4,439 nt of DNA from a virus (Duplodnaviria > Heunggongvirae > Uroviricota > Caudoviricetes). The notes under the pieces were generated by a model. That model had not been told where the DNA came from, made no database searches, and saw only the letters and a list, made by a program, of their open reading frames with translations. Shown one piece after another: positions 2-4,439 of this stretch. The stretch lies in IMG/VR virus record IMGVR_UViG_2657245015_000006. One strand, 5' to 3'. The translations under genes were made by a program, and so were the position numbers. The first letter of the stretch is position 1. Every line of letters starts with the position of its first letter.

Positions 2-274
2 GCGGCTGTATCGGGCATGTATGCGGCAGGGGCCAGTATGATCCTGGGCGGAGTGGCGCAGATGCTGGCACCGAAAGCCAGGACGCCCACGGCAGCCAGT
101 ACAGATAACGGCAAACAGAACACCTATTTCTCCTCACTGGATAACATGGTTGCCCAGGGCAATGTTCTGCCTGTTCTGTACGGTGAAATGCGCGTGGGGT
201 CACGTGTGGTTTCTCAGGAGATCAGCACGGCAGACGAAGGGGATGGTGGTCAGGTTGTGGTGATTGGTCGCTGA
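2..274 (+). CDS. I: Tail assembly protein I (gpI), C-terminal part only; the 5' end lies upstream of the window
   Basis: The reading frame is open from the window edge to TGA at 272-274 (the ATG at 17 is internal). The translated C-terminus (...NGKQNTYFSSLDNMVAQGNVLPVLYGEMRVGSRVVSQEISTADEGDGGQVVVIGR) matches my recollection of the lambda gpI C-terminus. Its position directly upstream of J reproduces the lambda gene order I-J-lom. Confidence 0.85.
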   Translation, partial: AAVSGMYAAGASMILGGVAQMLAPKARTPTAASTDNGKQNTYFSSLDNMVAQGNVLPVLYGEMRVGSRVVSQEISTADEGDGGQVVVIGR

Positions 275-334: not shown

Positions 335-3300
335 ATGGGTAAAGGCAGCAGTAAGGGGCATACCCCGCGCGAAGCAAAGGACAACCTGAAGTCCACGCAG
401 TTGCTGAGTGTGATCGATGCCATCAGCGAAGGGCCGGTTGAAGGTCCGGTGGATGGATTAAAAAGCGTGCTGCTGAACAGTACACCGGTGCTGGACAGTG
501 AGGGGAATACTAACATCTCTGGTGTCACGGTGGTGTTCCGGGCAGGTGAGCAGGAACAGACACCGCCGGAGGGATTTGAATCATCAGGTTCCGAGACGGT
601 ACTGGGTACGGAAGTGAAATACGACACGCCGATCACCCGGACCATCACGTCGGCAAACATTGACCGTCTGCGCTTTACCTTCGGTGTGCAGGCACTGGTG
701 GAAACCACCTCAAAGGGGGACAGGAATCCGTCGGAAGTTCGCCTGCTGGTTCAGATACAACGTAATGGTGGCTGGGTGACGGAAAAAGACATCACCATTA
801 AGGGCAAAACCACCTCGCAGTATCTGGCCTCGGTGGTGGTGGGTAACCTGCCGCCGCGCCCGTTCAATATACGGATGCGCAGGATGACGCCGGACAGCAC
901 CACAGACCAGCTGCAGAACAAAACGCTCTGGTCGTCATACACCGAAATCATCGATGTGAAACAGTGCTACCCGAACACGGCACTGGTCGGCGTGCAGGTG
1001 GATTCGGAGCAGTTCGGCAGCCAGCAGGTGAGCCGTAATTATCATCTGCGCGGGCGCATTCTGCAGGTGCCGTCGAGCTATAACCCGCAGACGCGGCAAT
1101 ACAGCGGTATCTGGGACGGAACGTTTAAGCCGGCATACAGCAACAACCCGGCCTGGTGTCTGTGGGATATGCTGACCCACCCGCGCTACGGCATGGGGAA
1201 ACGTCTTGGTGCGGCGGATGTGGATAAATGGGCGCTGTATGTCATCGGCCAGTACTGCGACCAGTCAGTGCCGGACGGTTTTGGCGGCACGGAGCCGCGC
1301 ATCACCTGTAATGCCTACCTGACCACGCAGCGTAAGGCGTGGGATGTGCTCAGTGATTTCTGCTCGGCGATGCGCTGTATGCCGGTATGGAACGGGCAGA
1401 CGCTGACGTTCGTGCAGGACCGACCATCAGATAAGGTGTGGACCTATAACCGCAGTAATGTGGTGATGCCGGATGATGGCGCGCCGTTCCGCTACAGCTT
1501 CAGCGCCCTGAAGGACCGCCATAATGCCGTTGAGGTGAACTGGATTGACCCGAACAACGGCTGGGAGACGGCGACAGAGCTTGTGGAGGACACGCAGGCC
1601 ATTGCCCGTTACGGTCGTAATGTCACGAAGATGGATGCCTTTGGTTGTACCAGTCGGGGGCAGGCACACCGCGCCGGGCTGTGGCTGATTAAAACGGAGC
1701 TGCTGGAGACGCAGACCGTGGACTTCAGCGTGGGCGCAGAAGGGCTTCGCCATGTACCGGGCGATGTCATTGAAATCTGCGATGATGACTATGCGGGGAT
1801 CAGCATCGGCGGGCGCGTGCTGGCGGTGAACAGCCAGACCCGGACGCTGACGCTCGACCGTGAAATCACGCTGCCATCCTCCGGTACCACGCTGATAAGC
1901 CTGGTTGACGGAAGTGGCAATCCGGTCAGCGTGGAGGTCCAGTCCGTCACCGACGGCGTGAAGGTAAAAGTGAGCCGTGTTCCTGACGGCGTTGCAGAAT
2001 ACAGCGTGTGGGGGCTGAAGTTGCCGACGTTGCGCCAGCGCCTGTTCCGCTGTGTGAGTATCCGTGAGAACGATGACGGCACGTATGCCATCACTGCCGT
2101 GCAGCATGTACCGGAAAAAGAGGCCATCGTGGATAACGGGGCGCACTTTGACGGCGACCAGAGAGGCACGGTGAATGGTGTCACGCCGCCAGCGGTGCAG
2201 CACCTGACCGCCGAAGTCACCGCAGACAGCGGGGAGTATCAGGTGCTGGCGCGCTGGGACACGCCGAAGGTGGTGAAGGGCGTGAGCTTCCTGCTCCGTC
2301 TGACCGTAACAGCGGATGACGGCAGTGAGCGGCTGGTCAGCACGGCCCGGACGACGGAAACCACATACCGCTTCAGGCAACTGGCGCTGGGGCGTTACAC
2401 GCTGACGGTCCGGGCGGTAAATGCGTGGGGACAGCAGGGCGATCCGGCATCGGTATCGTTCCGGATTGCCGCACCGGCAGCGCCGTCGCGGATTGAGCTG
2501 ACGCCGGGCTATTTTCAGATAACCGCCACGCCGCATCTTGCGGTTTATGATCCGACGGTACAGTTTGAGTTCTGGTTCTCGGAAACGCGGATTACCGATA
2601 TCAGGCAGGTTGAAACCACAGCCCGCTACCTTGGCACGGGGCTGTACTGGATAGCCGCCAGTATCAATATCAAACCGGGCCATGATTATTACTTTTATAT
2701 CCGCAGTGTGAACACCGTTGGCAAATCGGCATTCGTGGAGGCCGTCGGTCGGGCGAGCGATGATGCGGAAGGTTACCTGGATTTTTTCAAAGGAGAAATC
2801 GGGAAAACACATCTGGCCCAGGAGTTGTGGACGCAGATTGATAACGGTCAGCTTGCGCCGGACCTGGCTGAAATCAGGACGTCCATTACGAATGTCAGCA
2901 ATGAAATCACGCAGACCGTCAATAAAAAACTGGAAGACCAGAGTGCGGCAATCCAGCAGATACAGAAAGTTCAGGTTGATACAAATAATAACCTGAACAG
3001 CATGTGGGCCGTGAAACTGCAGCAGATGAAGGACGGACGCCTTTATATTGCGGGTATCGGTGCCGGTATTGAGAACACCCCTGACGGCATGCAGAGTCAG
3101 GTGCTTCTGGCTGCTGACCGGATTGCGATGATTAATCCTGCGAATGGCAACACAAAGCCGATGTTTGTTGGTCAGGGCGATCAGATATTCATGAACGACG
3201 TGTTCCTGAAACGCCTGACGGCTCCGACCATTACCAGCGGCGGTAATCCTCCGGCATTTTCCCTGACACCGGACGGGCGGCTGACGGCGAAAAATGCCGA

Positions 3301-3814
3301 TATCAGCGGTAACGTGAATGCGAACTCCGGGACGCTCAACAACGTCACGATTAACGAGAACTGTCGGGTTCTGGGAAAATTGTCCGCCAACCAGATTGAA
3401 GGCGATCTCGTTAAAACAGTGGGCAAAGCTTTCCCCCGGGACTCCCGTGCACCGGAACGGTGGCCATCAGGGACCATCACCGTCAGGGTTTATGACGATC
3501 AGCCGTTTGACCGGCAGATTGTTATTCCGGCGGTGGCATTCAGCGGCGCTAAACATGAGCGGGAGAATAACGATATTTATTCGTCATGCCGCCTGATAGT
3601 ACGGAAAAACGGTGCTGAAATTTATAACCGTACCGCGCTGGATAATACGCTGATTTACAGTGGTGTTATTGATATGCCAGCTGGTCGCGGCCACATGACG
3701 CTGGAGTTTTCGGTGTCAGCATGGCTGGTGAATAACTGGTATCCCACAGCAAGTATCAGCGATTTGCTGGTTGTGGTGATGAAGAAAGCCACCGCAGGCA
3801 TCAGTATCAGCTGA
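335..3814 (+). CDS. J: Tail tip / host specificity protein J (central tail fibre, gpJ family), 1159 aa
   Basis: A single uninterrupted 3480-nt ORF. The N-terminus ([34 protein letters not shown]...) and most of the first ~800 residues match my memory of lambda gpJ (1132 aa) almost residue for residue. The central region contains two fibronectin-III-like segments (about residues 620-810, e.g. ...[32 protein letters not shown]... and ...[21 protein letters not shown]...). The conserved block [28 protein letters not shown] precedes the C-terminal domain. The gene sits between I and lom as in lambda. Stop codon is TGA at 3812-3814. Confidence 0.95.
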
Positions 3815-3832
3815 ATTTTATAACCCATATAC

Positions 3833-3860
3833 GGGCGCCAGAAATGGCGCCTTTTTTATT
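3833..3860 (+). terminator. Rho-independent terminator downstream of J
   Basis: Seen in sequence: a GC stem (GGGCGCC 3833-3839 pairing with GGCGCC 3846-3851) around a 6-nt loop (AGAAAT), followed immediately by T6 (3852-3857) and ATT. It lies 19 nt after the J stop codon. It is unidirectional, since the opposite strand has no T-tract after the stem. Confidence 0.75.
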
Positions 3861-3870
3861 GCAGAAAAGC

Positions 3871-3881: not shown

Positions 3882-4433
3882 ATGCGTAAAGTTTGTGCAG
3901 TCATTTTGTCCGCAGCCATCTGTCTGTCCGTATCCGGTGCGCCTGCATGGGCGTCTGAACATCAGTTCACACTGAGCGCGGGGTATCTTCATGCCCGTAC
4001 GAACGCTCCCGGCAGTGATAATCTGAACGGGATTAACGTGAAATACCGTTATGAGTTTACGGACGCGCTGGGGCTGATTACGTCCTTCAGTTATGCCAAT
4101 GCTGAGGATGAGCAAAAAACGCACTACAGCGATACCCGCTGGCATGAAGATTCCGTGCGTAACCGCTGGTTCAGCGTGATGGCGGGGCCGTCTGTACGCG
4201 TGAATGAATGGTTCAGCGCGTATTCGATGGCGGGTGTGGCTTACAGCCGTGTGTCGACTTTCTCCGGGGATTATCTCCGCGTAACTGACAACAAGGGGAA
4301 AACACTGCCGTACTGCGCTGGAGAAATTCTCCCAGCAGCATCAGCCGTTGCTGGTAAGTCTGGAGTCGCTGGGCCGTCATACCATCCAGATGCTGCACGA
4401 CGTGCTGGACGCGTTCGCGCGGATGGACATTGA
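3882..4433 (+). CDS. lom: Lom-like outer membrane protein (Ail/OmpX/PagC/Lom family) with an altered, probably non-native C-terminus; likely truncated or a pseudogene
   Basis: The N-terminus [24 protein letters not shown]|SEHQ is a typical Sec signal peptide with an AWA cleavage site. Residues 1-141 closely track lambda Lom as I recall it ([29 protein letters not shown]...[59 protein letters not shown]). After codon 141 (nt 4304) the frame reads [42 protein letters not shown], which has no resemblance to the Lom C-terminal beta-strands and lacks the terminal aromatic residue typical of this barrel family. Lambda Lom is about 206 aa; this ORF is 183 aa. Confidence 0.75.
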
Positions 4434-4439
4434 CGAAGC

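Follow-up and report, generated by a model that had tools for sequence, protein, structure and literature searches.

The tail tip attachment protein J encoded in the E. coli prophage fragment analyzed here carries, judged from its sequence, a C-terminal specificity module that is the common 'O157-prophage / 1A2' allele rather than the LamB allele of phage lambda. The receptor of this J protein is most likely OmpC and not LamB, a reading to which we assign a probability of about 0.8 by analogy with a 97%-identical domain that functions through OmpC (1A2), with the structure of a related allele in complex with OmpC (A8) and with a natural OmpC-dependent phage (phi330). The window (the whole stretch of DNA that was analyzed, 4,439 bp) is the entire contig CDRU01000694.1 of draft assembly GCA_000946335.1, and all features described below lie on its plus strand.

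An intact J gene of the lambda type

Gene J (335..3814), encoding the tip attachment protein or central tail fiber, is a single intact open reading frame of 1159 codons with nt 3812-3814 as its stop codon. It lies between the 3' end of the gene encoding tail assembly protein I and the lom gene, and the order I-J-lom is that of lambda and of E. coli strain 120899. In the source contig gene I is called from base 2, where it is cut by the contig edge, and in the list of open reading frames the segment spans 17..274; upon alignment to lambda I it is 97-100% identical from nt ~120 onward. The bases before that (nt 1 to ~120), which belong to the stretch of gene I encoding the C-terminus, are only 68-75% identical to lambda, which marks a further mosaic breakpoint inside that gene.

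A profile search found six Pfam families in J, all above their curated cutoffs and in the order typical of J proteins: FNIII-A_GpJ, Phage-tail_3, Ig_J, Ig_J_second, Phage_Tail_Tip and Ig_GpJ_C. The last of these (PF12421) covers residues 1029-1159 with a score of 131.9 bits against a cutoff of 26.2. The gene is thus functional-looking and of the lambda type, insofar as sequence can tell. Since its residues 1-820 are 97.6% identical to those of lambda J, and in view of the known lambda structures, the protein would be expected to assemble as a trimer at the tail tip and to trigger DNA ejection.

Two blocks of J diverge from lambda

Alignment of the protein with the J protein of lambda (NC_001416) gave 84% identity over the whole chain. 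The N-terminal part (residues 1-820; 335..2794), which comprises the hub and the FNIII/Ig domains, has 800 of its 820 residues in common with lambda (97.6%). It is followed by a divergent block, block A (residues 821-905; 2795..3049), in which 22 of 57 aligned residues are identical (38.6%) and which carries a 28-residue insertion at residues ~835-862. This insertion, which lies upstream of and separate from the C-terminal domain, is the source of the 27 residues by which the protein exceeds lambda J in length. The equivalent of block A in lambda is the alpha-helical shaft plus the top of the straight fiber (domain names from PMC11101478). The straight-fiber segment between the two divergent blocks (residues 906 to ~1002; 3050..3339) is moderately conserved relative to lambda, identity being 79% over residues 906-1011. 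Beyond it lies the putatively exchanged specificity module (residues ~1003-1159; 3340..3811), delimited by a drop in DNA identity and consisting of the last fiber beta layers and the receptor-binding domain (RBD). The Ig-like RBD proper (residues 1029-1159; 3419..3811) was delimited by PF12421, an AlphaFold2 model and Foldseek. Identity to lambda J is 42.5% (57/134) over residues 1026-1159 and 46.7% by tblastn over the last 167 residues, and the two RBDs are collinear, with only a single one-residue gap.

The same blocks are seen in the DNA. Identity to lambda per 60-nt bin is ~90-100% over nt 120-2760 (one bin is at 78%) and low over nt ~2760-3180, with 51-62% in block A and 58-73% at nt 3001-3180. 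It is back up to 87-93% at nt 3181-3300, is 78% at nt 3301-3360, and is 48-67% from nt ~3360 through the end of J and beyond. We place the module boundary near nt 3340 (residue ~1003) because DNA identity to lambda breaks there. Some phages have the module in common with the window only from nt ~3241 on, and database proteins join this RBD class to either a lambda-type or a window-type upstream segment. The sharp identity breakpoints, together with the presence of the domain on J backbones having differing upstream segments, support the view that the RBD is a horizontally exchanged module. As the RBD class is found with either shaft, and as the 1A2 chimera (see below) works with the shorter shaft of lambda, block A and the RBD assort independently.

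An initial annotation of this DNA had described the C-terminus as having the overall layout of lambda gpJ while diverging from it, with identity of >90% to the lambda domain named as refutation. Both descriptions hold: the anchor motifs FPR, WPSGT, DRQIV, DMPAGRG, KK and GIS are present in both proteins, and 42.5% identity is far below the level named. The added claim that short segments differ in length was overstated, the domain being collinear except for the one-residue gap. The coordinates given there, 3370-3814, need adjustment at both ends. Nucleotide 3370 is in codon 1012 (phase 2), so that the first in-frame base is 3371 (codon 1013), and the end includes the stop codon; moreover, the break in DNA identity is slightly upstream, at ~nt 3340, and the peptide quoted in support corresponds to residues 1026-1159 (nt 3410-3811).

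Base composition had also been offered as evidence of exchange. The two GC figures were reproduced (45.8% for nt 3541-3660 and 65.0% for nt 2401-2460), but these stretches are hand-picked extremes and the argument built on them is weak. GC falls over the 3' third of the window J gene and of lambda J alike, and 150-nt bins across the last 450 nt range from 47 to 57% in the window versus 52-58% in lambda. Since lambda's own J gene declines similarly at its 3' end, GC content says little about recent exchange.

The C-terminal domain has the gpJ receptor-binding fold

A sequence search of solved structures returned PDB entries 9wca/9wcb ("A8 gpJ 713") as the best match with 211 bits, and lambda J (8xcj/8iyk) scored 140 bits. 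We modeled residues 993-1159 with AlphaFold2 by use of an alignment of 32 homologues; six database homologues were dropped as frameshifted pseudogene products. The top Foldseek matches of the resulting model (pLDDT 85) were 9wcb and 9wca followed by the lambda structures 8xck and 8xcj, with TM scores of 0.77-0.84 and E-values of 1.7e-19 to 4.1e-17. Structural modeling had been proposed in the initial annotation, and it recovers the gpJ RBD fold, with OmpC-bound A8 nearest and lambda next. By this model the domain has the known Ig-like receptor-binding fold of gpJ.

Entry 9wcb bears the title 'Open state of A8 gpJ 713 central tail fiber with OmpC G17 from E. coli EDL933' and holds gpJ together with three outer membrane porin C chains, and 9wca is the closed state; our use of the A8 structures draws on their PDB titles and chain contents. 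The A8 allele has the same fold and is the best structural match, but its identity to the window protein is 67.3% over residues 994-1159 and 46% in the predicted distal loops (defined below), its loop L1 is 4 residues shorter and its loop L2 is 5 residues longer. On this comparison the window RBD is a sister class to A8 and not the A8 allele itself. The lambda RBD (8xck and 8xcj, with LamB) has the same Ig-like fold (TM 0.79-0.84), but it binds LamB, and modeling indicated that the open lambda RBD clashes with OmpC (PMC11101478).

Predicted receptor-facing loops are the most variable parts of the domain

Four loops at the bottom of the lambda RBD, L1-L4, reach into LamB (Ge and Wang 2024, PMC11101478), and critical host-range residues and indel hot spots of lambda J are located at residues 1012, 1048-1049, 1077-1078 and 1107 (Maddamsetti et al. 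2018, PMC6646904). The strand order of our model gives seven inter-strand loops; each strand of the sandwich runs opposite to the one before it, so that consecutive loops fall on alternate faces. Three loops (DDQPFD, NG and PAGRGH) are thereby assigned to the fiber-proximal face and four to the distal face, a predicted orientation derived from strand order rather than from coordinates.

The first predicted distal loop, L1 (residues 1032-1045; 3428..3469), has a mean entropy of 1.40 bits and corresponds to the hot spot at lambda residue 1012. L2 (residues 1075-1080; 3557..3574), at 2.40 bits and 40% identity across homologues, is the most variable segment of the RBD and corresponds to the indel hot spot at lambda 1048-1049. 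L3 (residues 1102-1104; 3638..3646; 1.94 bits) adjoins the indel hot spot at lambda 1077-1078, and L4 (residues 1132-1143; 3728..3763), which carries the single one-residue gap relative to lambda, corresponds to the hot spot at residue 1107. Over the 32 homologues mean entropy is 1.61 bits in the distal loops, 1.05 in the strands and 0.63 in the proximal loops, and identity to lambda is 29% (10/35) in the predicted distal loops versus 80% (12/15) in the proximal loops. That the distal loops are the most variable and, with a 28-residue offset, coincide with the lambda positions 1012, 1048-1049, 1077-1078 and 1107 argues for the predicted orientation.

The module matches the OmpC-dependent 1A2 domain

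A8 and 1A2 are chimeras of lambda gpJ whose C-termini were taken from natural gpJ variants of E. coli phages (Brödel et al., Nature 2024, PMC11338833). Screening was done in a host deleted for lamB, and function was assayed in a ΔlamB ΔompC background with plasmids encoding OmpC variants, in which wild-type lambda J failed (PMC11338833). DNA delivery by 1A2 is LamB-independent and OmpC-dependent (PMC11338833), and a later preprint (10.1101/2025.02.28.640725) confirms its use of OmpC. The two chimeras differ in the OmpC variants accepted among the 23 tested: A8 works with the OmpC proteins of both K-12 and EDL933, whereas 1A2, which accepts EDL933 OmpC and many further variants, does not function with that of K-12 (PMC11338833).

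The DNA sequence of 1A2 was taken from the supplement of that paper, where it is codon-optimized and where machine reading of the PDF introduced 11 frame errors. Strings of the window's own DNA had no match in the Nature 2024 supplement, as expected from the codon optimization of the chimera C-termini. When the window C-terminus was compared with the machine-read DNA of 1A2 by plain tblastn, the matches were broken up and jumped between frames, at 46-58% identity. We decoded 1A2 by a custom frameshift-aware protein-to-DNA alignment, and 151 of its 162 readable residues were identical to those of the window protein. Five of the differences are credible (R1076K, N1078H, N1079T, R1118H and S1157T, window residue given first) and the rest reflect reading damage such as a stop codon.

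The J proteins of prophages VT1-Sakai (AP000400) and PPompW_EH2246 (LC567836) differ from the window protein at exactly those five positions and at no others over residues 993-1159 (162/167 identical, 97.0%). As natural O157 alleles show the same five differences, the 1A2 domain is taken to be the O157 prophage allele, and doubt over the optically read 1A2 sequence is mostly removed. These two natural genes occupy the same position, with lom next to J, and their predicted loops L1, L3 and L4 are identical to those of the window. Three of the five differences that set VT1-Sakai, PPompW and 1A2 apart from the window (R1076K, N1078H and N1079T) fall in L2, the other two being R1118H and S1157T. 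The allele of Stx2a_JNE130578 has R1076, as in the window. The 1A2 chimera also differs from the window protein in its shaft, which is the shorter one of lambda, whereas the window J protein carries the 28-residue insertion.

Natural phages provide a further comparison. The Stx2a siphophage phi330 forms no plaques on a ΔompC strain of the Keio set, and complementation restores plaque formation (PMC12502783). Its J protein (PV189401), from a natural lambdoid long-tailed EHEC phage, has an RBD 63.5% identical to that of the window; it is of an A8-like class, unlike that of the window, and phi330 infects K-12 via K-12 OmpC. Phage 21 was considered as a native OmpC user or as a source of the allele and was ruled out, since it is natively LamB-dependent and gains OmpC use by one J mutation (PMC11336670). 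A 2026 receptor-prediction preprint deals with the GpJ proteins of Drexlerviridae, explicitly excludes the lambda C-terminal domain and makes no call for the class found here.

The earlier proposal of a receptor other than lambda's LamB is hence supported, both by the 97.0%-identical, LamB-independent and OmpC-dependent 1A2 and by the finding that the nearest solved complex is one with OmpC. Its alternative, a variant LamB, is unlikely in view of the 42.5% RBD identity and of the origin of the 1A2 allele in a screen on a lamB deletion. As few substitutions can shift receptor choice in the J family, the set of OmpC alleles accepted by the window protein may differ from that of 1A2.

The module is widespread in E. 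coli and often decays

The 475-nt module is present at ≥80% nucleotide identity in 3383 of 5426 complete E. coli genomes, with a median of two copies per positive genome. Copies that are 100% identical to it occur in many genomes of the species, among them those of type strain ATCC 11775, NU14 and several ETEC isolates. The RBD class is represented at ≥90% amino acid identity by 56 phage records of INPHARED, mostly Stx1a- or Stx2a-converting prophages and PPompW prophages, and the RBD of phage 204576 is 100% identical to that of the window. The best match of the full window among the 5,426 complete genomes has 96.9% identity; its exact mosaic of J segments is therefore absent from that set, although each segment is present.

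Relatives in protein databases are graded from 98% down to 47% identity, and many of them are fragments or are frameshifted. The out-of-frame stretch of the frameshifted database copies corresponds to an open reading frame in the +1 frame of the window (3318..3596). The J gene of VT1-Sakai is annotated as truncated by mutation. The many frameshifted copies indicate that such J genes frequently degenerate in resident prophages; the window copy is intact.

Modular exchange at the C-terminus of J was described in a study of 1,207 homologues, in which the specificity region emerged as an evolutionary module that circulates on its own (Maddamsetti et al. 2018, PMC6646904). The 'specificity region' of that study consists of lambda residues 960-1132; in the window, the divergent block extends to the C-terminus from a position equivalent to lambda residue ~975. 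The variable loops of the window coincide with the hot spots reported there; that study assigned no receptors to natural lineages.

Sequences downstream of J

The spacer between J and lom (67 bp, 40% GC) contains a terminator-like hairpin and T-run (3833..3862). The hairpin itself (3833..3852) has an 8-bp stem with 6 GC pairs and a 4-nt loop, and is followed by TTTTTATTGC. One such site was found versus 0.3 expected, and the hairpin would fit separate expression of lom from the late tail operon. The lom gene (3882..4303), encoding an Ail/Lom outer-membrane protein, matches PF06316 over profile positions 1-140 of 199 and is truncated after codon ~140 of about 200. Matches to E. coli prophages end at nt 4302-4303, beyond which lies a 135-bp internal fragment of the chromosomal phoU gene (4305..4439) that is 100% identical to annotated phoU and is out of frame with lom. 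The phoU fragment has matches in 5421 of 5426 E. coli genomes, and in complete genomes having the identical module phoU is megabases away. Neither the GTDB representative genomes nor the JGI metagenome contigs contained a 35-mer spanning the lom::phoU junction, and no exact-protein record was found for the product of the fusion open reading frame. The join probably arose as a chimera during assembly, which is the simplest explanation because the junction was found nowhere else and only 135 bases separate it from the edge of a short draft contig; a real rearrangement is possible.

Discussion

The reaction of this protein with its receptor can be conveniently divided into steps, of which the later ones are transferred from lambda and from the open and closed A8 structures on the strength of 97.6% identity over residues 1-820. 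Three J chains would form the central tail fiber, their C-terminal Ig-like domains making up a trimeric tip. The four distal loops of the tip would enter the extracellular mouth of a trimeric porin, most likely OmpC, and loops L1-L4 would largely determine which OmpC alleles are preferred. If lambda is a guide, binding would spread the bases of the domains and the straight fiber, a beta prism, would twist. The alpha-helical shaft would then flip, the tail tip would open and DNA would be released.

Other readings of the divergent domain have to be set against the assignment to OmpC. The domain might still bind LamB, or an allelic variant of it, with its divergence reflecting drift or adaptation to LamB polymorphism. 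The fold and the conserved proximal loops are indeed those of the LamB-binding domain of lambda, and some other lambdoid phages, such as phage 21, natively use LamB. However, the RBD is only 42.5% identical to that of lambda and the predicted receptor-facing loops only 29%, 1A2, which is 97% identical, requires OmpC and came out of a screen in cells lacking lamB, and the nearest solved complex is one with OmpC; we regard continued use of LamB as highly improbable. A porin specificity shifted from that of 1A2 by the five substitutions, toward other OmpC alleles (e.g., that of K-12) or toward OmpF, seems unlikely. In its favor, three of the substitutions are in L2, the most variable loop (2.40 bits) and the equivalent of an indel and host-range hot spot of lambda; 1A2 and A8 differ in the OmpC variants accepted, of 23; and in lambda and phage 21 a change of porin takes no more than one or a few mutations. 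Against such a shift are the 97% overall identity and the agreement of the other three predicted distal loops with the 1A2/O157 allele, and intermediate alleles such as that of Stx2a_JNE130578, which has R1076, suggest ordinary polymorphism within one functional class.

Finally, J could be a relic in a defective prophage that has no working tail, in which case its specificity would be of no current consequence. The truncated lom gene joined to phoU might be read in this way, as might the many database homologues of the RBD that are frameshifted fragments and the J gene of VT1-Sakai annotated as truncated by mutation. The window J gene, however, reads through all 1159 codons without a break and retains every domain, and the lom::phoU junction, which was found nowhere else and lies at one end of a draft contig of 4.4 kb, is most simply explained as an artifact of assembly. 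Moreover, lom is not a tail gene. We consider it improbable that this J is a relic.

The RBD found here belongs to an already known and very common allele class, and modular exchange of J was described in 2018. With the allele class present in most E. coli genomes, the finding carries little weight as a discovery, and a 97%-identical allele has already been functionally characterized and used in engineered phage particles aimed at O157. Its value lies in annotation: J genes of this class are probable OmpC binders and should not be assumed to bind LamB. With five residues unlike those of 1A2, most of them in a single receptor-facing loop, the window allele provides a natural variant for mapping how the gpJ loops choose among OmpC alleles. 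It is a tentative and rather doubtful suggestion that the L2 residues R1076, N1078 and N1079 (K, H and T in 1A2/O157) retune the OmpC alleles accepted, e.g., toward that of the K-12 type. If they do, this widespread allele would be a case of natural, fine-scale tracking of porin alleles by prophage tail tips.
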